From contig OY969807.1 in assembly GCA_963703285.1 (NCBI GenBank), forward strand, positions 1,664,001-1,728,000: DNA of 64,000 nucleotides, in the 5' to 3' direction. The translations under genes were made by a program, and so were the position numbers. This stretch comes from an uncultured Nitrososphaerota archaeon. GTDB taxonomy: Archaea; Thermoproteota; Nitrososphaeria; Nitrososphaerales; Gagatemarchaeaceae. The notes under the pieces are model-generated. The model did not search any database. It had not been told where the DNA came from and saw nothing but the letters and a program-made list of their open reading frames with translations. Shown in pieces: positions 38,572 to 59,134 of this stretch. Numbering within the stretch: position 1 is the stretch's first letter; each line of letters starts with the position of its first letter.

Positions 38572-40311
38572 TCATCCAATATTTGGAGCACTAGTGTCTC
38601 CGGCCGGCGAGATGAGCTTCTTTCCCTTCTCGTTCAGCTTCTTTATTGCTCCATAGAGCGTATCCAGCTTCTCGTAATACCAGCCCGGTTGTCCACTTCT
38701 GCTTGGGACGAATTTCTCGTCGACGAACCGAAGGTACTCAAGGACATAACCGGCCACCTCGCGTTTGACGATCAAATACGACATCACTTGAGGGAGAATC
38801 GTCCGGAGTACGCCCGAGTTCGCATTGTACTCCCATCTTGTTTTAGTCACCGCATCCCCTCTGCGAGCTAGGTTCACGGTTCCCTCTCCGATAATCTCCA
38901 TCACCTTCACGCAGAAGTCCCGGTTGGAGTTGGTCACGTTGAGCTGCGGCCGATAGAAGTATCCCCTACTGTACGCCGCGTGGATAACCTTGGAGAGGAA
39001 TATCAATCCTTCTCCATCTATCACCCCTGCCAGCCAAGAGCTTTCCTCTTTAGTCAATGTCCTAGTATCCGTCGCTCTTCCACCCCGCCCTCTGTTCTTC
39101 AGGCTCTTCGGCAGCGCAAGCATAGCTGCCATCGTCTCCGGCGACGGGTCCCTCCCTTTCTCGTTCGTCCGCTTGAGCGCCATGTAGAGTGAGTCAGCTT
39201 TCTCGTAGTAACCCGCCGGAACTTCCATGACGCCGATGATTGGATTCGCATCGACGTAAGCAAGGTACTCCAGCATCCTCTCTGCCGCCTCCTTCTTGAT
39301 GAGCAAATGAGGCACCAGCTGCGGCAGCAAACCGCGAAGAACCATGCCTGCTCCCCGATAGCACCATCTATCCTTCCAGTCAAGACGCGTCTCTTTCTGG
39401 AAGTTCACCGACCCCCTTCCGATGACCTCCCTCACCTTCCTCGCAAACTCCTCATTGGAGTTGCTGAGGTTGATGGCGGGGACGTAGGCGAATCCGCGTC
39501 TTCCTTTGGCAGCAGATCCCCTGTTCAACTTCGTTATGAAGATCGAACCCTCTCCATCGATGACTCCTGCCAGCCATTGCCCCTCAACCGCACTCAGTTG
39601 CCTAGGTGGCCCATCCAAGAGTTCCTCTCCGTTCGCTTCATCAACCAGCTTGGATTTGGCGAACCTCCTCCACGACGTGATGTGAATCCCATCCACGAGC
39701 TCGCCCACCGGCTTCTTCGTCTCCACCTGGTCGACGCCGAGTATGGAGAGCTTGTGCACCTCCGAGGGTCTCACCTTGTCGGCGTACTTCACGGGCACAT
39801 AGACAATAAGAGACCGGAAGCCGGTCGTGTAGACATAGCTTTCGAACCCAAAGTCACCATCGACCTTCCCGGATACCCAGTAGAGCTTCTCTGCCTCCAG
39901 CCTCGTTCCTTCTGGGCTTCTGAGCTTCCGCCAAGGGAGTCTGAAAATCAGGTTCGAGCCGAGTTCGCCGTTCTTCTTCGTGTATGTGTGGCCATAGGCC
40001 CTCGCCTGGACTACGCTTGGGTGTGATTCAACCTGCTCTGGCTTCCTCGGCTCCGGCTCTGTTTGGCCATGGGGCTCGTTGTTCTCGTCTCCCGCCTGTT
40101 CTTTCTCAAACCCTCCGAGCGTCGTCTGGACTGTCTCTTCAGACCGTTCGGCTTCCGTCTTACCTTCCGTCCCTTCCGCCCGAGACCCACCATCGCTTCG
40201 AGCCACATCAAAGGCTGGCTCGCCGCCGACCGCCGGGGACGCTACCTCCTTCTCTGAGACCCCTGTTCTCTCCTTGGGGGTCCCTGTCTGGACAGAATCC
40301 TCTTGGTCCAT
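38572..40311 (-). CDS. Free-standing double-LAGLIDADG endonuclease-like protein (copy 1)
   Basis: Two WLAGVIDGEG(S/L)I motifs, each followed by NSN..F..KV.E.IG.G.V...W.Y...L..LP...L..K.E.A; acidic disordered N-terminus; no intron or intein context. Confidence 0.9.
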   Translation of the reverse strand: MDQEDSVQTGTPKERTGVSEKEVASPAVGGEPAFDVARSDGGSRAEGTEGKTEAERSEETVQTTLGGFEKEQAGDENNEPHGQTEPEPRKPEQVESHPSVVQARAYGHTYTKKNGELGSNLIFRLPWRKLRSPEGTRLEAEKLYWVSGKVDGDFGFESYVYTTGFRSLIVYVPVKYADKVRPSEVHKLSILGVDQVETKKPVGELVDGIHITSWRRFAKSKLVDEANGEELLDGPPRQLSAVEGQWLAGVIDGEGSIFITKLNRGSAAKGRRGFAYVPAINLSNSNEEFARKVREVIGRGSVNFQKETRLDWKDRWCYRGAGMVLRGLLPQLVPHLLIKKEAAERMLEYLAYVDANPIIGVMEVPAGYYEKADSLYMALKRTNEKGRDPSPETMAAMLALPKSLKNRGRGGRATDTRTLTKEESSWLAGVIDGEGLIFLSKVIHAAYSRGYFYRPQLNVTNSNRDFCVKVMEIIGEGTVNLARRGDAVTKTRWEYNANSGVLRTILPQVMSYLIVKREVAGYVLEYLRFVDEKFVPSRSGQPGWYYEKLDTLYGAIKKLNEKGKKLISPAGDTSAPNIG

Positions 40312-40362
40312 CGCTATGCTCGTCAGAAACCGTCAAAACCCCCACGCGCCTGGTCCGGCTAT

Positions 40363-40417
40363 GTTGCCATGGCAACTTGGCAACATCGTGGCAACTTCTT
40401 GGCAACTTTGTGGCAAC
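40363..40417. repeat. GTTGCCATGGCAAC palindrome plus TGGCAAC direct-repeat array (copy 1)
   Basis: TGGCAAC starts at 40370, 40378, 40389, 40400, 40411 (spacing 8, 11, 11, 11). Confidence 0.9.
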
Positions 40418-40457
40418 ATCGCCGCTGGTGTGGCTACTTTCTTAGGAATTCTGCAGG

Positions 40458-40631
40458 CTGACGGCCTCTTAGTTCAAAGAGTTCTACGCTTCTTCTGGGC
40501 GGTCCAGTACTCACAATCGGCTCGGCGCATGTTGCCATTCTGGCCGATCTTCGTCGGCACGACGTGAGAAGTTCGGCTTCTCAGGCCGCTCCCTTTGGGG
40601 GCTTTGGACCGTCGTCAGTTCTTAGTTTCTA
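40458..40631 (-). ncRNA. Conserved structured RNA leader upstream of the LAGLIDADG gene (copy 1)
   Basis: ~91% identical to 58631-58803; closing helix CTGACG/CGTCAG, CGGTCCA/TGGACCG, three internal hairpins; TTAAATAC box at 40653-40660. Confidence 0.7.
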
Positions 40632-40800
40632 GCAGGAGAATAGCGACTAGCAGTATTTAACAGGACAAGACTCCATCGCGGGTTCCGTTGCATCTTCGGG
40701 TGATTTGAAGCCGCGTTGCGGATTGGTTATTCATGGCTGTGCGCCTGTCGTGGATAAATTGTTCACAAGGTGTATAACCCGCCCAGAGCACCTTGGCTTG

Positions 40801-41073
40801 ATGACCAGAACGCTTCTCGTGGGTTCATTGGTCATAATCGCAGTCATGTTGGTTGCGTTTGCGATCTCCGTTCCGGTGGTACGAACCTCGTCCCTCGTGG
40901 GAGCCCGACCGTATTGTCCGCAACCTACTGGTGGACTTCTCATTCAGGTTTGCGATAACATAGTTCCTTTGAACGCGCACCATTACGATTCCGTCTCGAT
41001 GGCCATCTTCGGTTTCGGAGCCGCATCCGCAGGAATCTTTGGCTCGGGCTTCTACTACTCATTTTTCTCCTAA
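40801..41073 (+). CDS. Small membrane protein (FxxPVV...SxS family)
   Basis: TM helix, ISVPVV, Cys pair, YDSVSMAIFGFG. Confidence 0.65.
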   Translation: MTRTLLVGSLVIIAVMLVAFAISVPVVRTSSLVGARPYCPQPTGGLLIQVCDNIVPLNAHHYDSVSMAIFGFGAASAGIFGSGFYYSFFS

Positions 41074-41212
41074 AGCGCGGTTTCTGTTGAACCCTTCAAT
41101 AATGCCATCCATTTGTCCTTGAGTTCATACCGATTCCCGCAGCTTGTGCAGGTGTCTGTGCCTCCAAGGCTGCATGCGGTTTGACGAAGTTGTAATGGAC
41201 GCGGGAGATGGA

Positions 41213-41962
41213 TCACGACGTCGAGGTTTCCGACGAATTCAACATGAGCAGGTAGATCCCGTTTTCGATCGGGGGCAGCTGGACGGTCATCGAGCTCGCT
41301 ACCGGCGAGAGACACCCCTCCGCGCCTTCTTCACCGGCGCAGGGCGGAGTCGAGTACCATGGGACGGGGCTCGAATCAATGGTGACCCCATCGTTGGGTA
41401 TCGGCATCAGGCTCGACAGCTGGCCCTCCTCGGCATAAATCGTGAGGTTGTAGCCCGCCGCGTTGATTTGAGGACCCAGGGAGAAGTTGAGCTGCAGGAG
41501 GTACTCTTGGGCCGTCAGATAGTAGATGCCACCACCGCATGCCGCGCCGCAGTACACCGGAAAGCTGGTCTGCGAGTATGTGTACGAGCACAGGGCGTTG
41601 CTGAACGAAGTCATCGGGCTGGCGCTCATGTTGAGCTGGATGCTCCCCTCCGTAGTGTTGACGTCTACGATTGCAGAGGTGTAGTCAGGAATGGACGACT
41701 GGCTCGAAGCAGCGCTCGACTCCGAACCCTGTTGGACGGACTGTCCCAGAATCGTACAGCCATAGTTCACGGCCGTCGTTGTCGAGGAGAAAGCTGACTG
41801 AAGCGATTGAGTGGTCTGTGCAGGCGCCGCCGCCCTGGGTTGCAGGGAATACGCCGCGGCCCCTATGGCCACTACGAGGATGATCGCGACGAAAGCAACT
41901 ATCGCCCTCTCTTTTTTCCCCGGCGTTGCCGTCCCCTGTGAGGGTGCCTCAGATTTCATCAA
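41213..41962 (-). CDS. Membrane-anchored Cys-containing surface protein
   Basis: KKERA-IVAFVAIILVVAIG anchor, Ser/Thr-rich linker, paired Cys. Confidence 0.8.
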   Translation of the reverse strand: MMKSEAPSQGTATPGKKERAIVAFVAIILVVAIGAAAYSLQPRAAAPAQTTQSLQSAFSSTTTAVNYGCTILGQSVQQGSESSAASSQSSIPDYTSAIVDVNTTEGSIQLNMSASPMTSFSNALCSYTYSQTSFPVYCGAACGGGIYYLTAQEYLLQLNFSLGPQINAAGYNLTIYAEEGQLSSLMPIPNDGVTIDSSPVPWYSTPPCAGEEGAEGCLSPVASSMTVQLPPIENGIYLLMLNSSETSTS

Positions 41963-42093
41963 TCATGCACGACGCTCGACCCGCTGGCCTATCGGTGTAA
42001 TGAAGACGCCCTTGCGCTTAACAGTTTTGCTTCGGCAAAAATCTCCATCGCGGCGAGAATCGTTTTTAGGCATCCCGCCGGCGCCGATTCGCA

Positions 42094-43167
42094 ATGGACG
42101 AAAAGGTCCTCTCCTTCCTCCGCAGGGCCTACCGGGAGCACTACTTCAGGCGCCACGACCTGGTCGAGATCCCTTCTGCCATGGCGTCGAGGGAGTTCGG
42201 CTACATCCCCTTCGATGGCGGGATGGTACGCCACCTCTCCTTCAGGAACCCTGGAGAACTCTTCGCGGAGCTCGTCAGACAGGCGCCGTCCTCGGTATTC
42301 TGCTCCAACGCCGTATATGAGAGGCCCACTCTTCAGATGGACGAGAAGGGGTGGAAGGGGGCCGACCTGATCTTCGACATCGACGCCGACGCGATTCCTA
42401 CCCCGTGCAAGTCCACCCACACCTGGTGGTTCTGCGGCAACTGCCACAAGGGAGGCATGGGCGAGGTACCGTCAAGGTGCCCTTACTGCCGGAGCGAGGC
42501 GGTCGAGCAGATGCACTGGAGCTGCTGGGAGTGCCTCAACGAGACGAAGGTCCACGTGAAACGCCTGACAGGGTTCCTCCAAGACGACTTCGGCATAGAC
42601 CGGGAGAGCATCAGGCTGTACTTCTCAGGAAACAGGGGGTACCACGCACAGATTCATGACGAAAGGTACGAGATGGCGGACCCGCAGATGCGAGGCGAGT
42701 TAGCGAACTACGTGAAGGGGACGGGCCTCAGCCTGAAGGCGCAGGAGAGCGCGCCCGGCCGCACAGACCTTGGCTGGTCACGCAGGACCCGCCTGTTTCT
42801 CGTGACGACCGAGGGGGCCTCCCGCTCGAAGAAGACCCAGAAGCTCGCCAACCAGGTAGTCGCTGCCAACGGGGCGCTGATAGACGAATCCGTCACAACC
42901 GACGTGCACCGGGTCTTCCGGATGCCTGGAACGCTCCACGGCAAGTCTGGGCTGCTGAAGATGAGGGTCGAGTCGCTGGAGGAGTTCGACCCGCAGAGCC
43001 AGCCCGTGGTCCTGAGCGGCGAGCCGATCAAGGTGCGGATATACTACTCGCCCGAATTCGTCCTGAACGGGAGAAGGTTCGGACCGTACGAGTCCTCGAC
43101 GGTCGAGATACCTATTTACGCCGCAGTTTTCCTTCTCGCCAGGGGACTGGGTGAACTGGTCGATTGA
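42094..43167 (+). CDS. priS: DNA primase small subunit
   Basis: REFGY, DLIFDIDAD, FSGNRGYH, IDESVTTD.HR.FRMPGTLHGK. Confidence 0.95.
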   Translation: MDEKVLSFLRRAYREHYFRRHDLVEIPSAMASREFGYIPFDGGMVRHLSFRNPGELFAELVRQAPSSVFCSNAVYERPTLQMDEKGWKGADLIFDIDADAIPTPCKSTHTWWFCGNCHKGGMGEVPSRCPYCRSEAVEQMHWSCWECLNETKVHVKRLTGFLQDDFGIDRESIRLYFSGNRGYHAQIHDERYEMADPQMRGELANYVKGTGLSLKAQESAPGRTDLGWSRRTRLFLVTTEGASRSKKTQKLANQVVAANGALIDESVTTDVHRVFRMPGTLHGKSGLLKMRVESLEEFDPQSQPVVLSGEPIKVRIYYSPEFVLNGRRFGPYESSTVEIPIYAAVFLLARGLGELVD

Positions 43168-43733
43168 GCAGGGGAGACGAGACGATTGAGGTCCTGAAGC
43201 AACTGCTCGACGCAGAGGAACAGTCGGAGAACCTGACGAAGCTACCGGCGGATACCTACACCCGAATCGCGGTCTACGTGCAGAAGCTGCGCAAGAGCGG
43301 TGACATCACCGCGGAGGACCCGCTCAGCAGGCTGACGAGAAAGCAGCTCTCCCTCCTGGAGGGTATGGGGAGACAGCTCCTCGACTCCAGGATTTCCAAG
43401 GCCGTGAGCAGGCAAGACATGAGGGACCTTCTTCCCGAAGAGAAGTTTGTCTGCGAATTCTACATGGAGTTCGAGAGGATGCGCAACAGGTTCGGAAAGG
43501 CGCTCGGCAACGGACAGCAGTCGACGTTCGCTGCCCTGCAGAAGGGCCAGATGCAGAAGAAGGTCACGGTCCGGTTCCAAAAGCCGCTCGAGGAGATAGT
43601 CGGGTTCGACCTGAACAAGTATGGCCCCTTCCAGGTCCACGACGTGGCCATCATCCCCGCGGCCAACGCAGAGGTCCTGGTATCCAGCGGCGTCGCGATC
43701 GTGGTCTATTCGAGCGACTCGATCTACGAGTAG
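43164..43733 (+). CDS. GINS complex subunit (Gins51/15-like)
   Basis: LTKLP.D.Y, RISK, LLPEEK, VRF...IVGFDL.KYGPF...DVA.IP..NA.VL; coupled to priS. Confidence 0.85.
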   Translation: MSRGDETIEVLKQLLDAEEQSENLTKLPADTYTRIAVYVQKLRKSGDITAEDPLSRLTRKQLSLLEGMGRQLLDSRISKAVSRQDMRDLLPEEKFVCEFYMEFERMRNRFGKALGNGQQSTFAALQKGQMQKKVTVRFQKPLEEIVGFDLNKYGPFQVHDVAIIPAANAEVLVSSGVAIVVYSSDSIYE

Positions 43734-44068
43734 CTCCGCCACGTATGGTTGCATTTCACGCAGCGGTAGAACTGCGTCGGCGGCTCGTCGCCGCTCCGGG
43801 TCTGCAGGAACCACCACATCGCCTCGCCATGCCCGCACTTGGGGCACTCTGTCTTCGTCGTCGGAAGAGACGTGAGCTTCCCTTCCTTCTCCCCGACCAC
43901 CTTTATCACCGGCGCGTCGGCCAGCTCCTCCTCGGTCGCCTTGGTCACGGTCTTCCCCGCCTTGTCCGAGAAGCCGCAGTTGTCACAGACGAAGGTCATC
44001 GCCGTCCCCTTGTCGAGCTTGACCTGCTTTAGCTTTAGTCTGGTTCCACACTTCGGGCAGAATTTCAT
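43724..44068 (-). CDS. tfs: Transcription factor S
   Basis: MKFCPKCG...CPKCG...QTRSGDEPPTQFYRCVKC.HTWR. Confidence 0.95.
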   Translation of the reverse strand: MKFCPKCGTRLKLKQVKLDKGTAMTFVCDNCGFSDKAGKTVTKATEEELADAPVIKVVGEKEGKLTSLPTTKTECPKCGHGEAMWWFLQTRSGDEPPTQFYRCVKCNHTWRSYS

Positions 44069-44352
44069 TCAGTCACACCGGTGAACGCCTTGTTCACGGC
44101 CTCGAGCAGGTCGTGGGCGTTGCTCTGGGCCCTCTCGAGGCTCGCCAGGAACGCCTTCTCGGGTTTGATTCTCTGGGCCCTCACCTTGATGACGAGCTTC
44201 TTGATCAGTGGGTGCGGGGGAAGGACCCCAGCAAAGGTTACGTTCTTCTCGTCCAGGAGTTCGTGGTGGATTATCTCTCCGAGGGAGTAGTCTTCACCGG
44301 TCACTTCCACGGTGAACTCTCTTTCGCCCTCTCTCAGGACCTGGACTTGCAT
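44065..44352 (-). CDS. rpoL: RNA polymerase subunit Rpo11 (L)
   Basis: GEDYSLG, V.FAG..PHPL; usual position next to tfs and csl4. Confidence 0.88.
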   Translation of the reverse strand: MQVQVLREGEREFTVEVTGEDYSLGEIIHHELLDEKNVTFAGVLPPHPLIKKLVIKVRAQRIKPEKAFLASLERAQSNAHDLLEAVNKAFTGVTE

Positions 44353-44388
44353 GGTTCTGAGGCGTGCGAATTCATTGGGTTATTAAAC

Positions 44389-44961
44389 TCATGGTTGTAC
44401 CGGTTCTCTGCCGAAGTCGTCTGCGAACTTCCGGTCCTCGACGTTCCCGCAGTTGGTGCACTGCGCCCTGCCTCCCGCCGCCACGAGGGGCCTACCACAG
44501 TTGCTGCACAGGGAGGCTATCACGCCGAGGTGCGGTTCGCCGATCGAGAGGTGGATCATCGCATTCATCGTGCTGATGACCTTGGCCCTCACCACGTCGC
44601 CAAGCTTCACGGCGGTCCTCCTCATCCCCCTTCCTCCCCTCTCCTCCCTTAGGAAGAGTATTCCGACGAATCCGGCCTGGGTCGGCTTCCCGTTGAGGTA
44701 GTATATCTTGAGTTGGGACGTGCTCGACTGCGCCACCTCAATCTGCCCCGTGACCACGTCTCCCACGTCGGGCACCTTGGGCACGACCGTCGATTTCACA
44801 TCGATTTCCCTCTCGCGGAGGTCCTTGACGACGACCCCGGCCTGCAGCGCCCTGATTGTCCCGTCCGCGTCGTAGGCGTTGTTGCCGGGAAGGTACTCTT
44901 CGGAGACCGCCATCGGGTCGCCCGGCAGCACTCTCTGTTGCTTCTCTGCGCTCATCTTCAT
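44389..44961 (-). CDS. csl4: Exosome RNA-binding protein Csl4
   Basis: VLPGD...EEYLPG, GDVVRAKV, LGVI...CSNCG...CTNCGNVEDRK. Confidence 0.93.
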   Translation of the reverse strand: MKMSAEKQQRVLPGDPMAVSEEYLPGNNAYDADGTIRALQAGVVVKDLREREIDVKSTVVPKVPDVGDVVTGQIEVAQSSTSQLKIYYLNGKPTQAGFVGILFLREERGGRGMRRTAVKLGDVVRAKVISTMNAMIHLSIGEPHLGVIASLCSNCGRPLVAAGGRAQCTNCGNVEDRKFADDFGREPVQP

Positions 44962-45995
44962 CTCGTCCTCGGTGTCAATCCGGTCGTCAACTCAATCCAC
45001 TTAGGTCTTTCTAGGAACTCCCCCACCTCCCTCCCCTCCATCAGCCTCACCAGAGCGTCCGCCTGAGGTATGGAGAGGACGGGCCTGTCGAACGTGAACC
45101 CGTCAATCGATATCCTGGGGCAGGCCGTCTGGACGAATGCCTCTATGTCCCTGTGGGGCGCCAGGCTGTCCGGGGTTATGTCCCGCATCGCCAGCTGCAC
45201 GACCTCCCGACCGTTCATCTCGAGCCTCTTCGTTATCCACCTCGTCCGCCCCAGCATCTTCTGACCCTCCTTCAGCCCCGTGATGACGCCGAAGACCCGT
45301 GCATCGAGCGCCTTGTACACGGCCAGTATCGACCGCTTCCTCCGAATCTCGGCCTCTTCCTTCATGTCCCTCACCTCCTCGAGATAGGGGTCGAGGAGAT
45401 AGGTTGGCTTCCCGGTGGCGAGGGCGACCCCGACCGCGTGGAACTCGCTCTCCCCGAGGTAGCAGAAGGCGTCGACCTCCCTGCTCATGGGGTAGATGGT
45501 CGAGAAGTCGCAGCCGAAGGTCTGGGACTGGAAGAGGAGGTTGTTCTCCTTCCCAAGGTGCACCTCGAGCCCGGCCGCCTCGAGCTGCCTCTTCGCCGGT
45601 TCCAGCTCGTCGAGATGCTGGCTGAAAGTCGCAAGGCCGATACTCTTGTACTGCCTGAAGACTGGGATTGACTTCTCGATGACGGCGTCGAACTTGATGT
45701 CGTCCTTTGCGTCGATGAGGTGCGTGAACTCGCCGATCTCTTCCACAACGGCGTTGTGACCGATGTGCAGGGCGAGGTCAGCGCCGAGCTTGGTGACGTC
45801 GTCGTCGACGGTGTCGCAAATCCCGAAGCAGGAGTCTCCGACGAGGAAGCACGGGACCCCGTACTCCTTCTCTATCCTCTTGACGAGGTCCTTCGTCTGC
45901 CGCAGCAGGCCGCCGGGAGCGTTGACCACTATGCCCTTTGGCTTCCGCTCTCTGACCAGCCTGAACACTTTCTCTTCGTCGATTCTGACCGTCAA
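44958..45995 (-). CDS. dph2: Diphthamide biosynthesis enzyme Dph2
   Basis: SCFGICD, HIGH, FGCD, FH, K.GQ, TACPRI. Confidence 0.93.
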   Translation of the reverse strand: MTVRIDEEKVFRLVRERKPKGIVVNAPGGLLRQTKDLVKRIEKEYGVPCFLVGDSCFGICDTVDDDVTKLGADLALHIGHNAVVEEIGEFTHLIDAKDDIKFDAVIEKSIPVFRQYKSIGLATFSQHLDELEPAKRQLEAAGLEVHLGKENNLLFQSQTFGCDFSTIYPMSREVDAFCYLGESEFHAVGVALATGKPTYLLDPYLEEVRDMKEEAEIRRKRSILAVYKALDARVFGVITGLKEGQKMLGRTRWITKRLEMNGREVVQLAMRDITPDSLAPHRDIEAFVQTACPRISIDGFTFDRPVLSIPQADALVRLMEGREVGEFLERPKWIELTTGLTPRTR

Positions 45996-46205
45996 ATCCC
46001 CGCTGACCTGGAACCCGCGCTCCTCTCTTCCTTAATTAGGATTCTCGTCCGATGAGGCTGTGCGGCCGCGATAGCGCGGGCCTCACAAAACCTCAGCGAT
46101 TTCATTGCCTGCGTCATCCTGTGATTGAGAGTTGGACGCGTCGCCGGGCGACATGTGGGGACCCTTTTAATACGGACGGGAGTCGCCGCCCGCGATGAGA
46201 TTTCA

Positions 46206-46307
46206 ATGGCAATGTGTGCAAAATGCGGCAAGGAGATTCCTGCAGGAGACGAAGTAAAGAAGGGCTTTCTGACGAAGAAGAGCTACCACAAGGAATGCGC
46301 TGCCTGA
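46206..46307 (+). CDS. 33-aa Zn-finger microprotein (CxxC...HxxC)
   Basis: MAMCAKCGKEI...YHKEC; TTTTAATA box ~30 nt upstream. Confidence 0.65.
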   Translation: MAMCAKCGKEIPAGDEVKKGFLTKKSYHKECAA

Positions 46308-46456
46308 AAAACTCTCGAATCGACTCCTGTTGTTGAAGATTTAATCAGAGAACGCTCTCTGCGTACGCAGTCCGTCCGCGGGCATCAATCAGTTCCGATG
46401 ATGCTTCTCGGCCCGGCAAACCCTTCGCCGACCGCAACACGACCGAGGGCGGAATC

Positions 46457-49254: not shown

Positions 49255-49280
49255 ACAAGAACCGCCGCAATCGAGTTGGA

Positions 49281-50486: not shown

Positions 50487-50531
50487 CAGCTCCGGCCTCG
50501 GGGCCCACGCAATTCGCATACTGAAGCCCTG

Positions 50532-50552: not shown

Positions 50553-50575
50553 TCGAGTTCGCCGTGTTGGGAATC

Positions 50576-51875: not shown

Positions 51876-51977
51876 CTGCCATCGGTTGAACCCCACGCGG
51901 TAGGATAAAACACGATTGTGTAGTTCCACTACCTGAGAATACATCTGCCGTGCTAAACAATCGTCTCCACTGGGTCG

Positions 51978-52001
51978 GTCGGACAAAACTATTAATCAGA
52001 A
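51978..52001 (+). promoter_or_regulatory. Copy of the 24-bp motif (GTCGGACAA-AACTAT-TAATCAGAA)
   Basis: Ends 19 nt before GTG 52021. Confidence 0.78.
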
Positions 52002-52020
52002 AAGCGCGCTCGGCCGAATC

Positions 52021-53013
52021 GTGAAGCGCAGGACGCTAGTCCTGTTCGTGGCCGTCGTCACCGTCGCAGCGGCCGCGCTGCTGGCGTCGACGTTCGTGCT
52101 GGTGTCGGGCCTCACGCTCCATGACCAGGGCGCCGTCCGCTTCGGTGCCTCGCTCAACGCTACTACGGTCGCCCAGGCTCAGGCGGTGAGGGTCTACGTC
52201 GACGACTGGAACACGCTCGACTTCAAGAACTCGCTCCCGCTGTCGAATTCGCAGATGGCCGCAGGCCTCTCCTCCGGCCCGTGTGGTGGCCCCTATCCCG
52301 GCGGGATTGCGGTGTACAAGGGGGAGTACGACATGAGCAACGTCTCCTCGGCGACGCCCCTCCCGTTCTATGCCCCTGGGACCTACTTCTGCACTGAGCT
52401 ATCCTTCGCGAACTCGTTCACCTTCGGCCCGCACCAGAACGTCACCGCCTACTTCGACCTCGACGGCTACTACGTGACAACGAACGCTACCGCGGGCGCA
52501 TTTTCATCATATGTGCTCCAGCCGTACGCGCCCGGCGTCTACACGGTCGTCGCCGGCGACCCGCTGGGGCACACCAGGGTCATGTACTTCCGCGTGACCG
52601 GGACGACGGGGACGGCTGTAGCCCAGGAGCGAAGCGGGCCCGTGAGCACCTTCCCCGCGACGTGGCTAAACCCGTGCGACACGAGCGCATCGGGCAACGT
52701 CACCACGGCGGTGTACCTAGGGTTGAACGGAAGCTCTGCCTTCGATCACATCAACCTCGGCCAAGTCTACTCGCAGATCGTCAACTCGTCCGGGTTCTCG
52801 TTCCAGTCCGTTGGGCGGGGATGGGTGGTCTCGACGTGGTACGAGATCGGGGGCACCGGCGATGGCGCGAGCAACGGGCAGGTCGTGGTCTCGTTCATAC
52901 TCATCAGCGACGGCGTGCCCTCGGGGTACGCCAACGCCTACTACAACCCGGCGAGCGGGACGGTGGACGGCGTCACGTCAGGGGCGCTCCCGACGGCGAG
53001 CTGCGCGACCTGA
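52021..53013 (+). CDS. Two-module exported surface protein
   Basis: Signal/TM segment; SLNATTV..AVRV...G.A.Y.G.Y...N.S.A.PL...PGVYTVVAGD.LG...MYF.VT matches the first module of 49281. Confidence 0.85.
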   Translation: MKRRTLVLFVAVVTVAAAALLASTFVLVSGLTLHDQGAVRFGASLNATTVAQAQAVRVYVDDWNTLDFKNSLPLSNSQMAAGLSSGPCGGPYPGGIAVYKGEYDMSNVSSATPLPFYAPGTYFCTELSFANSFTFGPHQNVTAYFDLDGYYVTTNATAGAFSSYVLQPYAPGVYTVVAGDPLGHTRVMYFRVTGTTGTAVAQERSGPVSTFPATWLNPCDTSASGNVTTAVYLGLNGSSAFDHINLGQVYSQIVNSSGFSFQSVGRGWVVSTWYEIGGTGDGASNGQVVVSFILISDGVPSGYANAYYNPASGTVDGVTSGALPTASCAT

Positions 53014-53082
53014 GAGTAGAGCGCGGCTAGGTCGGATTGACCAGAAAAGGAGGTACTCGGCTGGAACCTGCGCTGCCTCCTA

Positions 53083-53154
53083 GGCCCTCCTCATCCCGCT
53101 CCAGGAGCCTGTCAGCGCCGGCGGTGGCGATCATCTTATTCTCCCTAAGGTACG
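53083..53154 (-). pseudogene. Internal fragment of a second rpl10e allele
   Basis: Aligns to 56445-56514 (LRENKMIATAGADRL..GMR) with mostly synonymous differences and indels. Confidence 0.85.
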
Positions 53155-53193
53155 GGTTCCTGTATTGGGTTCATTGCGCCTTCGTGCTTGGCT

Positions 53194-53532
53194 TCATACA
53201 GGCGTCCTGATTTCATTCCCGATCCGCTGCATCGCCTGCCCGCACATCGTACCAGGATTCCCGACCATCACGCAGTACCTGTAGCTCAGAGGTCCAATCA
53301 GCAAAGGCGACATGTCGACCACCCTGACGGCGCCGACGCCGAGACACGCGTACATCACCGATGCAGAGGAGGAACCTGGTGTGGGGTGCCACGTCGCGCA
53401 TCCTGGTCCAGCGAACAGTGTAGAGCTTTCGCACACCGGGGCGGAGACGGAGATCGGCACAATCGGAGCAAGGAAGAGCACAAGGAAAGCGATGGGCGCC
53501 GCCAAGCTGAGGGCTATTCTTGTGGCTCGCAC
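53194..53532 (-). CDS. Small Cys-rich membrane protein (FxxPIV...SxxY family)
   Basis: TM helix, FLAPIVP, SASVMYACLGVG. Confidence 0.7.
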   Translation of the reverse strand: MRATRIALSLAAPIAFLVLFLAPIVPISVSAPVCESSTLFAGPGCATWHPTPGSSSASVMYACLGVGAVRVVDMSPLLIGPLSYRYCVMVGNPGTMCGQAMQRIGNEIRTPV

Positions 53533-53563
53533 CAGAGAACCACCGTAGGTTTCACGACGCGCC

Positions 53564-53587
53564 TTCTGTAATACGTGTTTGTCCGAA
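53564..53587 (-). promoter_or_regulatory. Copy of the 24-bp motif (TTCGGACAA-ACACGT-ATTACAGAA)
   Basis: Ends 31 nt before the start at 53532. Confidence 0.65.
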
Positions 53588-53638
53588 CGCGTTCAGATGC
53601 TCAAAGATTGTTGGAAACGAGCCCCACCAGCAGGTTCC

Positions 53639-54271
53639 TCATGGGTACGCGGTACGATTCTCAAACCAGGTCAACCACAGCGCCCGGAAACGTGCGACAC
53701 CCAGCAAGAGGAAAGGCAGGGTCGAGACCAGCACTAAGATAGACACGAGACCCAGCCCCGCAAGATAGAAGTTGCTCGGGTCGAGCGCGACAGCACCCTC
53801 AAAATAAACGGGGAGCGACAATATGTAGAACTTGATTATGAAGAAGAATGCGAACAGGACGCCGGCGAAGAAAGTGGCGGACGCAAGCAACGTCAAGGCG
53901 TAGACCATCCTTCTGTATCGCTCGACGCCCGGTGGGACGATTCTCTCGAAGAGCACGAAGGCGATGAGGGGGTATCCTATGATGAGGGTGAGAGCGAGAG
54001 AAGCTTCCGCGACGAGCAGGGTAGGCTGGGGAAGTCCGCCTTGTTCGGTGATGCCGGTCGAGCCACCGCTAGAGATCAACACCCACCCCGGCGGCAGAAT
54101 CTGCTCCCTGACCCACGACATGAAGACCGAGGCCAGCGGCACATCCGACGCCCCGCCGAAGAGAAACGACCGCAGGTTGACCGGGAATGCGAACAACACG
54201 AGAAAGAGGGCGGACAGGCTGGCCAGTACGACCTTGACCCTGTGAGCCGCAACGGGGAGCGGCGCCTGCAT
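53639..54271 (-). CDS. TatC-like membrane protein, shortened and divergent
   Basis: LP.GW.LI, SL...IIGYPLI....I.P, FFAGVLFAFF.I, NFY...LP; lacks the C-terminal TM segments of TatC. Confidence 0.55.
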   Translation of the reverse strand: MQAPLPVAAHRVKVVLASLSALFLVLFAFPVNLRSFLFGGASDVPLASVFMSWVREQILPPGWVLISSGGSTGITEQGGLPQPTLLVAEASLALTLIIGYPLIAFVLFERIVPPGVERYRRMVYALTLLASATFFAGVLFAFFFIIKFYILSLPVYFEGAVALDPSNFYLAGLGLVSILVLVSTLPFLLLGVARFRALWLTWFENRTAYP

Positions 54272-54387
54272 TGGAGGTCTGAAAGTGGGCCTCCGAGATA
54301 AAAGCATGTTGGGCTTCTGGGAGCATTCGATCCCAGCGGCGCATCCCTCAGAAGGGGAACGCCGACCTTCAGGTACTCAGGAAGAAC

Positions 54388-54422
54388 GGTCGTGCAGTTC
54401 AGGCGGCGACAGGCGCCTCGGC
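54388..54422 (-). repeat. Copy of the rpl10e 3' end and stop region
   Basis: 30/35 identical to 56224-56258 (AEAPVAA* vs AEAPVAV*); all five differences are transitions. Confidence 0.8.
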
Positions 54423-54469
54423 CGGCACATCATCGACATCACCGTGGGTGCCCTGCTTCTCTCTCCGCC

Positions 54470-55945
54470 TCAGCAGTAGAAGGTGACTATCCATCCCGAC
54501 TGGCCATTGTACGTCCCGTAGACCCCGCCCCAACCCGACATCATCGCCGCTGGTACGGTGCCCTCCGGACCGGCGAAGAAGTAGCTGGACCAGACTCCTC
54601 CGGACCCGTCGCTGCCACTCGGAGCGACCCACGTGTTCCCGTACGCGTCGGTGAACGTCGCTCCCGCGGGCATGAGCGTCCCGTCTGTCGTGCTGGGGCA
54701 GACGAGCATTGGTGCCGCCTCAGAATAGCTCGCTGAGAAGGACGTGGCGCCCGAGACGCTCGACGTGCCGGAGCACCCTCCACTGCAGTCATAGGTCGCA
54801 CTCGCGGCGGTCACGGGGGTGTCGTAGGAATAGTCGAGGCTCCCCGTCATCTGCACGGTGATGCCCGCCCCGGTCCCCGTATAGTCCTCGGAAGGGAAGG
54901 GTCCCCATGAAGCCGTGACCCCCCAGGTCACGCCGGAGGCGGGGACTCCGCTCTGGTCGAAGGTGACGGTGTAACAGGGGACGGCATTCGGGGAGTTCTC
55001 GACGACCCCGGCTGTGAAGTCGCCGCAGTAGTCGTTGACGGTGGCTGCGTTGAGGATGAACGTGCCAAAGGAGCCATTGGGACCCGCCGCGCCAGAGGGT
55101 GAACCATCGCCGCCGTTGCCGCCGAAGCCGCCGGAACCGAACGAGGGCGTAATCCCCCCATCGTTGTTGATTGCGCCAGCGTTCACCATGCCATCGCCTC
55201 CTATTCCACCATCGCCGCCGTTGCCGCCGAAGCCGCTCGAGGCGAAGCCGCCGTTACCGCCGTTGCCACCATCGCCACCGTTACCGGTTATCGCCCCTTG
55301 ATTGTTGATGGTGCCTCCGAAGGGGCCAGCGGAGAGGATCCAAAAGCCGGAGCCCCCGGCGCCGCCGGGTCCGCCATTGCCCCCGTTGCCGCCGAAGCCG
55401 CCCGCTCCGCCAGCGCCACCGTTGCCGCCCGTGCCTATGACGGTCCCTTGGTTGTTGATGGTGGCCAATCCGGCGTCGAGGATGCCGTAGCCACCATCTC
55501 CCCCGGGGCCGCCTCCCGAACTTGACCCAACACCATCGCCGCCGGCACCCCCGTTGCCGCCTGTGCCCGCGAGCGTCCCTTGGATGTTGATCGTGCCTAA
55601 GTTGTCGACGCCGTCGCCACCGTCACCACCCTCTCCGCCTGCACCGGCGCCGGGGGCTCCGACTCCACCATTAGCACCCGAGGCGGCGACGGTCACGCCT
55701 AAACCCACGTCCAGGACCGTCCCCGAGGAGATGGTAAGAGTCGACGCAATCGAGCAAGTGTCGGTCGCCCCACTCCAGGTACCGGATAGAGGGCCGGGGC
55801 ACACAGTCGCGCCGTCAGAAACGGTGACCGAGATGACCGTCTGAGCGTGCGCGGCCGGGACATGCAGTCCGGCCGTGGCAATCAGGAGGAGAAGGGCCAC
55901 GGCGAGCGTCAGCGGGAAGCCCCGAAGCGAGACCGGCTTCCTCAC
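54470..55945 (-). CDS. Secreted glycine-rich (PGRS-like repeat) protein
   Basis: Signal peptide ending AHA-Q; GGNGGAGG tracts alternating with TINNQG strands. Confidence 0.88.
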   Translation of the reverse strand: MRKPVSLRGFPLTLAVALLLLIATAGLHVPAAHAQTVISVTVSDGATVCPGPLSGTWSGATDTCSIASTLTISSGTVLDVGLGVTVAASGANGGVGAPGAGAGGEGGDGGDGVDNLGTINIQGTLAGTGGNGGAGGDGVGSSSGGGPGGDGGYGILDAGLATINNQGTVIGTGGNGGAGGAGGFGGNGGNGGPGGAGGSGFWILSAGPFGGTINNQGAITGNGGDGGNGGNGGFASSGFGGNGGDGGIGGDGMVNAGAINNDGGITPSFGSGGFGGNGGDGSPSGAAGPNGSFGTFILNAATVNDYCGDFTAGVVENSPNAVPCYTVTFDQSGVPASGVTWGVTASWGPFPSEDYTGTGAGITVQMTGSLDYSYDTPVTAASATYDCSGGCSGTSSVSGATSFSASYSEAAPMLVCPSTTDGTLMPAGATFTDAYGNTWVAPSGSDGSGGVWSSYFFAGPEGTVPAAMMSGWGGVYGTYNGQSGWIVTFYC

Positions 55946-56234
55946 GACCGGACTCCGGCCCCCGAAAGACGACCATTTCCTTTCTCTAGAATGAGCCCCG
56001 CCGCAGTCCCGTCACTCAGGATTGCTCCTATGTCGGCCACTGCCTCTCTTTCCTCCTGCCGAGGATAAAAGTCCTTTGAGAGGGGTCTCTCCAGAGGGCC
56101 TCGGGGCCCGACGCGGTTCGCACGTAGAAGCCTGGAGCTCATGTGACGGTAACTCGCAGAGCGATTGAAGCTTCAGCCCGCTGACTTGCGCGCGTGTGCT
56201 AAGGCTCAGGAGATGGTTCCTGTGGTCGCGTAGC

Positions 56235-56780
56235 TCAGACGGCGACAGGCGCTTCGGCTTCCTCGACCTCTGCCTCTGGAGCCTTGGCGTCCTCCGAGAC
56301 CTTGACCTCCGTCAGCATCGGCAGCTTCGCCTTGGCCGCATGCAGCGCCTTCTTCCCCAGCTCGAGGTCGGCCGCCTTCACGTGAAGCTCGAGAACCGTC
56401 GTCCCGATGTCAACCCGCGCAGCGACGCCGATGGGCTTCCCGAACGCCTTCCTCATCCCCTCCTGGAGCCTGTCTGCGCCGGCGGTGGCGATCATTTTAT
56501 TTTCGCGGAGTACGATATGAGGGTACGTCCTCACGACTAGGTAGTACCCTTCCTCTCCCAGAGATACGAGCTTCTTGTTCGCCGCGACGCGGGCCGACTC
56601 CAGCGCGTTCGAGCGAATCTGTACTCTGCCCTTGGAGATCAGTCTTATGACGTAAGCGTAGTCGGTGGCGTACTTACCAGTGGTGAACCTGGCTATCTTC
56701 GGGTTGGGCGTGCCAGGAGCATACTTCTTGGAATATGCCTGACTTTTAACCTCGCGGTAGTTACTCCCGTGGAAGGCTAA
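56235..56780 (-). CDS. rpl10e: 50S ribosomal protein L10e (uL16)
   Basis: HGSNYR, QIRSNALESARVAANK, YPHIVLRENK, GADRLQEGMRKAFGKP; no ATG/GTG/TTG at the expected start. Confidence 0.96.
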   Translation of the reverse strand, partial: LAFHGSNYREVKSQAYSKKYAPGTPNPKIARFTTGKYATDYAYVIRLISKGRVQIRSNALESARVAANKKLVSLGEEGYYLVVRTYPHIVLRENKMIATAGADRLQEGMRKAFGKPIGVAARVDIGTTVLELHVKAADLELGKKALHAAKAKLPMLTEVKVSEDAKAPEAEVEEAEAPVAV

Positions 56781-56848
56781 TCTCCTCTATTTTCTTCGCC
56801 GAGCCCCAGCCGTTTAAATATACTTCGGTGAACTCACGACTCCACGGC

Positions 56849-58537
56849 TCATTTCTCATCGCGTGGAGAACGCCCTTGCCCCGCTTTGGGCTTCCTCGAC
56901 CTCAACGGAAATTCGCTCGCCGGCCAGATTTCTGTCGGTCGCGCTCTCCCTCGATAATATCCATTCGAATCAAAGAATGACAGGGCCTTCTCAGCCTCTC
57001 GCCGCTTGTCTCCCTCGAGAAAGGGAAGTATCTCTCGCAGGAGTCGAATCGCCCTAATCCCATATACAGTCTTGCGCCATATCGGCATCAACTCAGGTCC
57101 TCTGTACTTTGCCTTGACGTGGCTCGACAGTCCGACGAGGTTAGAGAACTTGGAGATGGTCGCTGGGTCAGTATTCCCTATCGTCACCTGCGCACTGGTG
57201 GAATCTGAGGCCGAGACATAGCAGCACGCTATGCACCCCTCACCCTGGATTAGCGCTGCCACCCAAGCTCTATGCTCGATGCTCGGGATTATGACTTCTG
57301 GTACGCCCGATTTGCCGTGCGCGACGCCACGAGGGACTGTCGTTGCCAATCCGATCTGCTCAGCAATTAGAGCCGTGTTCGTGCCGCGTCTCTTCGAGCG
57401 TAGTGGAAACTCCTCGCGCGGCCAGACGTCCCCGTTCCTGAACTCACCCCTGTGATAGCCGCGCGGCCCGAAGAACTCCATTGCCTTTCTGGCTTCCCTC
57501 TCCTTCTGTCCCACAAGCCAAGGCAAGACCTCTTGGAGGACTCGCAATGCCCTCAATCCTGCGATGTTCTTGCGCCATTGCGGCTTCCAGTCGTGGTTCC
57601 TGGTTGGTGTCAAAGACGGAGCGACTCCCAGATAGCCGGCCAGCCTGTTGATGGGTCCAGCATCAGTCATCGAGGTGTGCACCTCAAGATATGTCGTGTC
57701 GCTCTCCTTCCTGTAGATGCTCTGAATGCATCCCTCTCCCTGTATCAGGGCTGCTACCCACGCCCGGCCCACCGTCGTCTGGATCACGGTCTCAGGTATG
57801 TCCTGCTGCATAAGGCGGCCGAGGTGCGGCCTCCGTCTCCACTCTTCGGGTGGCTTGATGCCGTGCTTCTTCATATGCCGCCTCATTGCGCCTGGCTGAC
57901 GGTACCCCATCCTGCGGGCCGCCTCCCGGGGATTCTTGCTCGTCCTTACGACGCTCTCGAGGAACGGGGCGAACTCAGGACTCGAGACCAGAGGCCGTAG
58001 CATCGACTCTTCACCATCGGGTCCCTCGACCGCCGACACTCTCAGCGACCGGGAACCACCTGTGGAGTCCTCGCTGATGAAGACCCAGCTGCCCTGCTCC
58101 TTCATCTCCATGAGCTTCGGACTCGCCTTGTAGAGCCAACTCCTGCCCGAACCGAACCGAGCCCTCTCTCCGACGACCAGCGCATCCCGTTCAAGGTGAC
58201 CCAGGTGGAGTATCACCGTCGGCTTGCTCACCCCGAGCTTCTCCGCGAACTCGCTCCGCGTGGTGCCTGCAAGCCGGTCGTCCTCAAGCATCGCCTTCGC
58301 CATCCTGGTACAGCACAGGTCCATCCTCGGGTTCTTTCCGGGTGGGCGCTCTCCTCTGCTCAAGCGACCAGCCAGCTCGTCGGAGCTGATATCCGCCACC
58401 ATTGTCAGGGACCCGGACTCTCGGAGAGCCTCAGAAATGACAGGCTCGCCTCGAACCTCCGGGGCATCGACCGCTTCGGAGACCCCCGCTCCCTGCTTCG
58501 GGGTCTCGTCCTGGACACGGCTGCTATCTTCGTCCAT
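56849..58537 (-). CDS. Free-standing wHTH plus double-LAGLIDADG endonuclease-like protein (copy 2)
   Basis: TRSEFAEKLGVSKPTVILHL wHTH; two repeated domains RAWVAALIQGEGCI...WRK...G.RA.R.L.E.LP.L.G.K.REA.KA..FF; N-terminus homologous to copy 1. Confidence 0.88.
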   Translation of the reverse strand: MDEDSSRVQDETPKQGAGVSEAVDAPEVRGEPVISEALRESGSLTMVADISSDELAGRLSRGERPPGKNPRMDLCCTRMAKAMLEDDRLAGTTRSEFAEKLGVSKPTVILHLGHLERDALVVGERARFGSGRSWLYKASPKLMEMKEQGSWVFISEDSTGGSRSLRVSAVEGPDGEESMLRPLVSSPEFAPFLESVVRTSKNPREAARRMGYRQPGAMRRHMKKHGIKPPEEWRRRPHLGRLMQQDIPETVIQTTVGRAWVAALIQGEGCIQSIYRKESDTTYLEVHTSMTDAGPINRLAGYLGVAPSLTPTRNHDWKPQWRKNIAGLRALRVLQEVLPWLVGQKEREARKAMEFFGPRGYHRGEFRNGDVWPREEFPLRSKRRGTNTALIAEQIGLATTVPRGVAHGKSGVPEVIIPSIEHRAWVAALIQGEGCIACCYVSASDSTSAQVTIGNTDPATISKFSNLVGLSSHVKAKYRGPELMPIWRKTVYGIRAIRLLREILPFLEGDKRREAEKALSFFDSNGYYRGRARPTEIWPASEFPLRSRKPKAGQGRSPRDEK

Positions 58538-58551
58538 CAGAAAGCCCTGGG

Positions 58552-58590
58552 GAAGTTGCCATGGCAACTTCTTGGCAACTTTGTGGCAAC
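58552..58590. repeat. 20-bp palindrome GAAGTTGCCATGGCAACTTC plus TGGCAAC array (copy 2)
   Basis: TGGCAAC starts at 58562, 58573, 58584 (11-bp period). Confidence 0.9.
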
Positions 58591-58630
58591 ATCGCTGCTG
58601 GTTTGGCTATGTTGTTAGGAATCCTGCAGG

Positions 58631-58803
58631 CTGACGGCCTCTTAGTTCAAATAATTCTACGCTTCTTCAGGGCGGTTCAGCACTCACAATCGGCTCGGCG
58701 CATGTTGCCATTCTGGCCGATCTTGGTCGGCCCGACGTGAGAAGCCAAGCTTCTCATGCCGTTCCCTTGGGGACTTTGGACCGTCGTCAGTTCTTAGTTT
58801 CTA
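58631..58803 (-). ncRNA. Conserved structured RNA leader upstream of the LAGLIDADG gene (copy 2)
   Basis: Same helices as copy 1, one C-G to U-A compensatory pair, most other changes in loops; TTAAATAC box at identical spacing. Confidence 0.7.
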
Positions 58804-58828
58804 GCAAGAGAACAGCGGCTGGTCGTAT

Positions 58829-59134
58829 TTAACGGAACAAGCTCTGTTGAGGGCTCTGTTCCGTCTCTGGGTTATTTGAATCGCCGTTCCACTTGGGTGA
58901 TGCGCTCAAAATCGTCAGTCTGACTCGCTCCATGAGTCGGCAAAGTTCGTAGTCTCGTTGCGGCTGGATATCGTATCGCTCGCAATGCCTCAGAAATTCT
59001 GTCACAAGTCCAGAGAATTCCTCGGTCAATCTCTCGTATCTCCCTTGCCACTTTAGGGCGAGTTCGATTTCTTGCGCCAATGCCAACTTGAGCTGGTATT
59101 CGCTTGACATAGGGGAATCACTTGTTCCCATCAA
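58829..59134 (-). CDS. Hypothetical helical protein
   Basis: 101 aa, overlaps the upstream ORF; its stop codon lies within the TATA box of the RNA module. Confidence 0.6.
   Translation of the reverse strand: MMGTSDSPMSSEYQLKLALAQEIELALKWQGRYERLTEEFSGLVTEFLRHCERYDIQPQRDYELCRLMERVRLTILSASPKWNGDSNNPETEQSPQQSLFR

Follow-up and report, generated by a model that had tools for sequence, protein, structure and literature searches.

The window analysed here is a 64,000-nt stretch of DNA from an uncultured Nitrososphaerota archaeon of the family Gagatemarchaeaceae (assembly GCA_963703285.1, contig OY969807.1, positions 1,664,001 to 1,728,000). It carries two copies of a conserved leader, each in front of a gene for a LAGLIDADG-type nuclease. 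The element is real, absent from Rfam and restricted to one lineage. We suggest that it is a portable cis-regulatory 5′ cassette that restrains the expression of free-standing nuclease genes, and we give this reading a probability of roughly 0.55. The conserved element would be the 5′ part of a messenger RNA (mRNA), with an archaeal TATA-type promoter, a multi-helix core of 190 nt, a linker, three to five heptads and about 45 codons. Within a single genus of peat Thaumarchaeota, the cassette would stand in front of free-standing nuclease genes of several kinds, and its RNA structure would keep potentially harmful nucleases at low or conditional expression. Recombination would spread the cassette between genes, and gene conversion would homogenise the two copies in the window.

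Both copies lie on the minus strand and share one order from 5′ to 3′: the TATA-box-like TTAAATAC, exactly 22 nt, a core starting with AGAAAC, a heptad array and an open reading frame (ORF) for a double-LAGLIDADG protein. Copy 1 (G000a) lies on the PCNA side. Its conserved upstream stretch (40661..40717), which reaches the 5′ limit of the homology with copy 2 in blastn, is followed by TTAAATAC (40653..40660; read directly, with a putative promoter role), the 190-nt core (40441..40630; a full-length match to covariance model (CM) R1 at 218.5 bits), five GUUGCCA heptads closed by the inverted copy GUUGCCAUGGCAAC (40363..40417; from sequence reading) and an array-to-ATG spacer with a degenerate block that may act as a promoter (40312..40362). 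The ORF, P0001 (579 aa, 38572..40311), begins with the 45 codons that we call N45 (40177..40311), in which a start-codon hairpin and a second hairpin are predicted. Copy 2 (G000b) lies on the L10e side. Here the upstream stretch (58833..58889, blastn) overlaps the end of a 101-aa ORF, and TTAAATAC (58825..58832, read directly) again stands 22 nt 5′ of the core, which has 189 nt (58614..58802; R1, 223.3 bits). Three GUUGCCA heptads with a terminal inverted copy (58555..58590; from sequence reading) and N45 (58403..58537) follow, the latter opening ORF P0002 (562 aa counted from the ATG, 56849..58537).

An earlier interpretation of this DNA from its letters (the sequence-only reading) had described a repeated structured-RNA plus LAGLIDADG module at these two loci. 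This holds: both loci have the same TTAAATAC, 22-nt gap, array and ORF, and the CM scores of 218 and 223 bits, with heptad clusters at these two places alone in the genome, exclude chance. The extent given then was too small: the shared core is real, but it covers 190 nt and not about 160, and the homology adds about 87 nt upstream and about 44 codons. The two cores are 92% identical over 189 aligned positions. Identity is 73% over the 89 nt upstream (−90..−1), where blastn gives one match of 87 nt (73.6%) abutting the core, 77% in linker and array, and 66% in the first 135 coding nt; at the protein level N45 is 48% identical over 44 residues. The shared unit thus spans about 87 nt 5′ of the core through the first 45 or so codons. 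The leader has a length of about 270-350 nt, of which the core makes up 190. It lies between TTAAATA and the ORF in 7/7 genomic copies, and both the TTAAATA word and its spacing to the core are invariant in 7/7 aligned homologs.

The known families of structured RNA do not include this element. Rfam 15 gave no match in the window at gathering thresholds. At E up to 10, the region 40250-40760 matched only CRISPR-DR26, on the opposite strand and at 16.1 bits against a threshold of 39, a chance match, so that the novelty which a known family would have removed still stands. ARAGORN found no tRNA or tmRNA. BLAST of the organism's own genome returned the two copies. R1, built from five homologs, detected seven full-length places among the 97 genomes of the family; these lie in five genomes of a single genus, which is represented by 23 genomes, and no copy was present in the other 74. 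R2, built from nine distinct sequences, found the same seven places in the 23 genus genomes and none in 150 further genomes sampled from the order, where stricter filters were used. There was no stand-alone leader in either set. Pattern scans added three contigs from species-representative genomes (one Candidatus Gagatemarchaeum metagenome-assembled genome and two from Nitrososphaerales) and nine stretches on metagenome contigs, six of them confirmed by the model, from peat. L024, L026 and L028 were rejected as chance matches on GC-rich bacterial contigs, with no CM match and with similarity confined to the pattern. Nine distinct leaders remained after the removal of identical sequences. Our literature searches turned up neither this element, in titles and abstract openings on LAGLIDADG with Thaumarchaeota and on Gagatemarchaeaceae, nor any RNA-based control of archaeal homing endonuclease genes.

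The proteins behind the leader carry much of our argument. The downstream ORF can be read for eight of the nine distinct leaders, the ninth being on a truncated contig. Four of these bodies are type-1 LAGLIDADG proteins (P0001-like; G000a, G001, G014 and G002b), two are type-2 LAGLIDADG proteins (P0002-like; G000b and G002a), one is P0039 (m23) and one is P0037 (G010). The only part that all of them have in common is N45, an acidic peptide of about 45 aa with a predicted local distance difference test (pLDDT) score of about 30, which is predicted to be disordered. The start of the ORF reads MD(Q/E)(E/D)...VQ..TPK...GVSE in all seven genomic copies and in the five metagenome contigs that are long enough (L029 ends too soon). 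Across the 23 genomes, N45 was found only at the seven leader loci and in G005, apart from two marginal matches (E = 0.03 and 0.07).

P0001 belongs to the LAGLIDADG homing endonuclease family by motif and predicted fold. A disordered N-terminus and a beta-rich domain (~99-200) precede a monomeric double-LAGLIDADG nuclease (~241-565), in which the motif LAGVIDGEG occurs twice (~247-255 and 427-435). It matches Pfam LAGLIDADG_1 (E = 3.4e-8) and, in the PDB, I-MsoI (E = 3.9e-9), and PADLOC assigns it to 'homing endonuclease' models. The AlphaFold2 (AF2) model has a pLDDT of 73 overall, mostly 84-97 across 241-565 with dips to 54-76. By AF2 and Foldseek it has the alpha-beta-beta-alpha-beta-beta-alpha double-domain fold, and the top Foldseek matches are single-chain I-MsoI, engineered I-CreI, I-PanMI and I-SmaMI with template-modelling (TM) scores of 0.70-0.80 on the target; the best is single-chain I-MsoI (E = 2.4e-18, TM(target) 0.71). 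Among 24 P0001 homologs, D252-G253-G255 and D432-G433-E434-G435 never vary, and at least 90% keep E254. P0001 therefore resembles monomeric double-LAGLIDADG enzymes (single-chain I-MsoI/I-CreI, I-OnuI and I-SmaMI) in the fold of residues 241-565 (TM 0.7-0.8), in keeping both acidic motif residues and in having a gene that is present or absent at one intergenic site. It differs from them in its N-terminal extension of about 240 aa, made up of the disordered peptide and the beta domain, and in a gene that lies outside any intron or intein and is a long-term resident of one site in two genera.

P0002 probably belongs to another LAGLIDADG lineage. Behind N45 it has a winged-helix-like helix-turn-helix (HTH), a second HTH and a double LAGLIDADG with the motif ALIQGEG twice, and its nuclease part is about 20% identical to that of P0001. 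Its Pfam matches are below threshold (HTH_20, E = 2e-4, 21.7 bits against a cut-off of 27; LAGLIDADG_3, E = 7.5e-4, 20.1 bits against 22.5). It matches PHROG phrog_5046 (E = 4.8e-26), and it has no sequence match in the PDB and none in PADLOC. P0039, at the PCNA-PriS site, has N45 and the beta domain as in P0001, followed by a Cys-rich C-terminus with the words VDH..NN and C..CN..KG. This part has weak PHROG matches to endonuclease VII (E = 1.1e-3 and 2e-3) and none in Pfam or the PDB, and it is probably endonuclease-VII/HNH-like. On contig L023 (5823-7100, plus strand), such a C-terminus stands in place of the LAGLIDADG part, with the leader, the PCNA-PriS site, the N-terminal peptide and the beta domain the same. 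The nuclease module has evidently been swapped at a fixed PCNA-PriS site.

P0037 has 597 aa and no match in Pfam, PADLOC or NCBIfam. Its single-sequence AF2 model is unusable (pLDDT 33), ESM Atlas scores reach at most 0.79 with no named family, and a profile of eight homologs found no sequence in the PDB and nothing in Pfam. The homologs share a conserved pattern that, read from their alignment, may be PD-(D/E)xK-like. In three other genomes, P0037 homologs have a different conserved leader, which is pyrimidine-rich (L082:780-1330; L083:3050-3600, minus; L085:2990-3540, minus). By eye it is very roughly 200-350 nt long. It comes with a TATA-like box of its own, inverted repeats upstream and a doubled CGTTAC just 5′ of the ATG, and the N-terminal peptide, MADVISSITATPKLG..VSDA.., is distantly similar. 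The P0037 gene family may in general have long leaders followed by a conserved first peptide. A further irregularity concerns G002b, where the N-terminal part (142 aa, L020:7256-7684, minus) and the LAGLIDADG body (a 616-aa frame, 5427-7277, minus) are out of frame and share about 20 nt. The same 142-aa ORF is present on metagenome contig L022, whose core is identical. Recoding, an assembly error or a frameshift in a pseudogene could explain this.

The genes themselves look like free-standing homing endonuclease insertions beside conserved genes. The sequence-only reading had placed each copy next to an essential gene, with no intron, intein or transposase context. Copy 1 is convergent with the PCNA gene (37664..38557, plus strand; Pfam PCNA_N and PCNA_C), with stop codons 14 nt apart, and on its other flank is the small subunit of DNA primase, PriS (42094..43167, plus strand; Pfam DNA_primase_S and synteny). 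Directly downstream of copy 2 is ribosomal protein L10e (56235..56780, minus strand), named from its translation and conserved homologs and not from a family search. Close homologs of P0001 (E < 1e-70) occur in 11 of the 97 family genomes and in two genera, and at every locus examined, 7 of 7 in one comparison among them, the P0001-type gene lies between PCNA and PriS on the opposite strand or adjoins PCNA. In G017 and G018, which have no LAGLIDADG gene there, PriS directly follows PCNA at a distance of 208 and 44 nt. This presence and absence looks like the pattern expected of a free-standing homing endonuclease gene, homing itself being a prediction. An idea that the heptads mimic the homing site was dropped, as the PCNA-PriS junction of the empty sites has no heptad-like word. 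The type-2 gene lies directly 5′ of L10e in G000, G001, G005 and G010, and L10e homologs (73-88% identity) are directly 3′ of it in three of five other genomes searched; an L10e homolog is nearby in G014 and on another contig in G002.

The leader is a changeable part of these loci. Most homologs of both LAGLIDADG lineages lack it, including seven further P0001-type loci where no leader was found even with filters off, and the nuclease genes are evidently older than the leader. G005 has an intact type-1 ortholog of 594 aa with N45 and about 130 nt of intergenic DNA. It has neither core nor array there, gives no CM match with filters off and carries no other copy in the genome, and all that the intergenic DNA retains of the core is 28 nt from its 3′ end. 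In the PCNA tree, the leader-bearing G002, G000, G001 and G014 form a clade with G005 (86/88), and G005 is nested inside it (96/93). The simplest history for the PCNA-PriS site would be one gain followed by one deletion, in G005. At the L10e site the leader is found only in G000b, the G002a leader being at a contig end. The leaderless type-2 versions start at about ...VADK..., which sets the 3′ boundary of the cassette at about codon 45. The leader is thus inherited with its promoter and first codons, is attached to unrelated bodies, can be lost and never stands alone. This combination fits a cis-acting expression module, and it argues against a guide, cofactor or antitoxin that recognises one protein.

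The core has the properties of a structured RNA. Its predicted fold is multi-branched with conserved unpaired stretches. The structure statistics come from nine related sequences of one genus, in an alignment fitted to the model in which few pairs vary. Standard pairs occupy 89.3% of 411 pair cells, compared with 33-43% for slid partners. Both sides have changed in 11 of 46 pairs against 4.5 +/- 1.5 in shuffles, and 0/500 shuffles reach 11. G-U pairs make up 37 of 414 pair cells and would read C-A on the opposite strand, which favours a sense-strand RNA; the sequence-only reading had also assigned the RNA to this strand, and the both-side changes above the shuffles agree with it. The best-supported elements are helix 3, the enclosing helix 1 and helix 4, with both-side changes in helices 1 and 4. 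Helix 3 is the long hairpin UGAGAAG/CUUCUCA stacked on CGGC/GUCG (40559..40589 in copy 1). Its 13 pairs are nearly invariant, with 95.7% of cells paired, one G-U pair retained in 8/9 sequences and one pair changed on both sides. The local hairpin GCCGA/UCGGC is mutually exclusive with helix 4, fits all sequences and has compensating changes in G014 and G002b. Since both are compatible with the sequences, two alternative folds are possible. Helix CUGACG/CGUCAG, proposed at the outset, holds for the two window copies. In m23, m29, G001 and G014 it is disrupted or displaced (rows compared by eye), and it was omitted from the model. The covariance-model search of more genomes, which had been called for at that stage, yielded nine distinct copies with covariation that is modest yet above controls; this supports an RNA structure but is short of proof. 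The minimum free energy is −59 kcal/mol for the copy 1 core (z = −2.49) and −59.4 kcal/mol for the copy 2 core (z = −2.03). A small ORF in the core (MATC...) was considered and discarded: its stop positions differ among copies, and the changes are non-synonymous yet compensating in an RNA helix.

The core may also communicate with the array. Its apical loop presents UGGCAAC (40531..40537 in copy 1), an anti-heptad complementary to the GUUGCCA heptads downstream, with which it can presumably pair. The neighbours of this word covary. The nucleotide 3′ of the anti-heptad and the one 5′ of the heptad are A/U in the G000-type copies, G/C in G002a and G002b, and G/U in G014 and G010. This suggests long-range pairing, in which several heptads would compete for one partner. 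Further downstream, the start codon lies within the hairpin UGGAC/GUCCA and codons 11-20 form a second hairpin; 95.7% of their cells are paired in nine sequences (95.6% in the start-codon hairpin, which is invariant). Both hairpins hardly vary and so have no statistical weight. Indels in the N45 region are multiples of three, and in neither window copy does a T-run of five or more stand between core and ATG. The near-invariant hairpin of the core, the two exclusive helices around GCCGA/UCGGC, the apical UGGCAAC with its possible heptad partner and the start-codon hairpin would all point to restraint, and an expression switch is the best fit among the four roles first proposed (cofactor, guide, ribozyme or expression switch).

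The closest precedent, by analogy, is the control of homing endonuclease genes in phage T4. Free-standing and intron-encoded genes there have hairpins that sequester the ribosome binding site on transcripts from a distal promoter, with a proximal promoter inside (PMC2988022). The T4 systems (I-TevI/II/III, segB and mobE) and our element are alike in having nuclease genes inserted beside conserved genes. They would also share a distal promoter giving a structured transcript, with a possible proximal promoter near the start codon (in type-1 copies), and a hairpin over the translation start, the purpose being to restrain a risky nuclease. Our element differs in its archaeal host, in having no Shine-Dalgarno sequence to sequester, and in its size, with a leader of about 270-350 nt that holds a 190-nt multi-helix core and a heptad array in place of a single hairpin. 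Unlike the T4 hairpins, it also moves as one unit with 45 codons of coding sequence and is found in front of several nuclease bodies that are unrelated to each other. Riboswitch leaders share with it a conserved multi-helix junction, invariant unpaired stretches and two mutually exclusive helices. They differ in that it matches no known aptamer family and precedes nucleases instead of metabolic or transport genes, and no ligand can be proposed. A more ambitious version of our reading, to which we give a low probability, would place the leader in a new class of structured regulatory RNA. Its UGGCAAC loop would select among the heptads of a tunable row and so serve as a sensor or safety catch, in a plug-in cassette that moves with its N-terminal peptide onto whatever nuclease module occupies the homing site. 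The modules so far would be two LAGLIDADG lineages, an endonuclease-VII/HNH-like domain and a possible PD-(D/E)xK domain.

Several points weigh against restraint by RNA structure. The covariation comes from nine distinct sequences, all of one genus, in which most pairs are constant, and the alignment had been fitted to the model. Folding energy does not choose a strand: z is a modest −2.0 to −2.5 for sense, and antisense is equal at −2.6. For the start-codon and coding-sequence hairpins the covariation is not significant, the observed value being reached in 152/500 shuffles. There is no Shine-Dalgarno sequence, and what the structure would then block is not evident. Type-1 copies may keep a proximal promoter, in which case the leader would be a separate upstream transcript, and the 11-nt period of the repeats would also suit a DNA-binding protein. 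The last two points lead to the main alternatives.

The main rival is that the conserved region works mainly as DNA, with the heptads as operators at which a host or encoded DNA-binding protein represses or activates the gene and the RNA fold is secondary. We consider this unlikely, and it may be compatible with an RNA role alongside it. I-TevI is reported to repress its own gene at an operator in its promoter. The T4 source mentions an I-TevI operator site (PMC2988022). In copy 1, the first four heptads are about one helical turn apart and the terminal 14-bp unit is a perfect palindrome, and clusters of at least three heptads (GTTGCCA) occur only at the two window loci in the 2.25-Mb genome. 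The encoded proteins offer candidate DNA-binding parts in the HTH of P0002, below threshold in Pfam, and in the beta-rich domain of P0001, P0037 and P0039. However, none of these is common to all of them, as P0038 lacks the winged HTH of P0002 and the type-1 protein of G001 is too short for the beta domain. The array also lies more than 200 nt 3′ of the predicted start site. Two deviations also speak against it: the G010 units GGGUAAC and GUUGUCA keep RNA pairing through G-U while breaking the DNA word, and in G001 the mutation of the anti-heptad is compensated within the RNA hairpin to which it belongs (GCA/UGC to ACA/UGU).

The core could instead be an independent small RNA gene with its own promoter, acting in trans or by transcriptional interference, which we regard as slightly less likely still. 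It does have a strong TATA-like box of its own at fixed spacing. In addition, a promoter-like block 5′ of the ATG is present among the type-1 copies only. In G014, G005 and G012 it consists of a G-run followed by CTTTTCTA, about 20-40 nt 5′ of the ATG; copy 1 carries GGGGGTTTTGAC in its place. G005 and G012 are leaderless orthologs, in which this putative promoter must drive a near-leaderless mRNA. TTTT (T4) runs also follow the array in some copies. Against a separate gene, the type-2 array ends about 20 nt 5′ of the ATG, which leaves no space for a second promoter, and the P0037 copy (G010) likewise has no room. The core is always inherited with N45 (7/7 genomic copies), and the 23 genus and 150 order genomes hold no lone copy. 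A trans target is not evident either, and the genome has no other cluster of the heptad word.

Improbable in our view is that the RNA has no function and that the copies are alike because they stem from a recent duplication and gene conversion has preserved the likeness. Exchange between the copies is indeed apparent. The core of G000a is 79% identical to that of its ortholog G001 and 92% identical to that of the in-genome paralog G000b, 18 kb away, whereas array and first 135 coding nt are 94% and 93% identical to G001. This mosaic indicates that the core and the upstream part have been exchanged between the two loci, and the window cores are evidently homogenised by gene conversion. It also bears on the earlier statement that the RNA is far better conserved than the proteins. 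This is true in the window, but it reflects the comparison of two different LAGLIDADG lineages together with a core homogenised within the genome. The element is present in 5/23 genomes of one genus, as a recent relic would be. Conversion within a genome leaves other constraints standing, however. Orthologs at PCNA-PriS keep the core at full length in four species, with R2 scores of 135-207 bits (135-214 over the seven genomic copies). Their cores are 61-63% identical while the flanking non-coding DNA, the 90 nt upstream, has decayed to 40-47%. The near-invariance of the long hairpin and the both-side changes in helices 1 and 4 also speak against a relic.

A physical partnership between RNA and nuclease, as a guide, cofactor, maturase-type ligand or inhibitor of the type III antitoxin kind, now has very little to recommend it. 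LAGLIDADG maturases bind structured RNA, and the leader adjoins nuclease genes in every assessable copy. The sequence-only reading had listed cofactor and guide among the possible roles. These roles are not supported, given the finding of at least three unrelated bodies (four different ones, with only the disordered acidic peptide in common, behind the same RNA), of an intact ORF without core or array in G005, and of mostly leaderless homologs. Scarcely more plausible is a version in which the nuclease would be licensed by a complex of the RNA with the N-terminal region common to the proteins. Like HEARO/omegaRNA (IscB, TnpB), the leader is a conserved structured RNA next to the nuclease gene of a mobile-looking element. 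Unlike them, it lies 5′ of the ORF and is continuous with it, has no transposon end or guide segment, is losable and occurs with unrelated proteins, whose nuclease folds read DNA by protein contacts. The leader thus has neither the single obligate nuclease family nor the variable guide of a guide-RNA nuclease, and no variable guide-like segment is seen in the nine-sequence alignment. The order of promoter, repeated RNA units and nuclease gene recalls type III toxin-antitoxin loci of the ToxIN type. In our element, however, units of 7 nt recur at a period of about 11 nt, against about 36 nt in such loci, there is no terminator between array and gene, and the encoded folds are those of DNA endonucleases and not of a ToxN-type RNase.

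Least credible is a self-cleaving ribozyme or the remnant of a group I intron that carried the LAGLIDADG gene: such genes are common in group I introns and the fold is multi-branched with conserved unpaired stretches, but Rfam gives no ribozyme or intron match even at E up to 10, the two window copies share no conserved sequence 3′ of the ORF, and the empty sites indicate plain intergenic insertion with no interrupted gene.

If the cassette does control expression, archaeal chromosomes would restrain selfish nucleases by RNA structure as T4 phages do, and a control module would be transferable as a unit with its first codons between unrelated nuclease genes. To our knowledge, structured regulatory leaders have rarely been described in archaea. 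Nature also provides a series at the same chromosomal position: a gene with the leader, an ortholog that has lost it, homologs without it and empty sites. As the organisms have not been cultured and the element occurs in one genus only, its practical value is for now limited.

Some features of the surroundings may be added. On contig L029 (705-1112, plus strand), a 135-aa ORF about 300 nt 5′ of the leader resembles a transposase fragment of the insertion-sequence type by eye, without a search. The conserved N-terminal part of L10e (56741-56800, minus strand) has no in-frame ATG, GTG or TTG upstream, and its ORF is called only from 56534; the start codon may be non-canonical. Directly 5′ of copy 2 are ORFs of 101 and 169 aa (58829-59627, minus strand) without a Pfam match, and copy 1 holds a frameshifted remnant of the upstream stretch that the 101-aa ORF overlaps. 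Also near copy 2, a 238-aa ORF (59974-60690, plus strand) encodes a SAP DNA-binding domain (Pfam, E = 7.7e-8).

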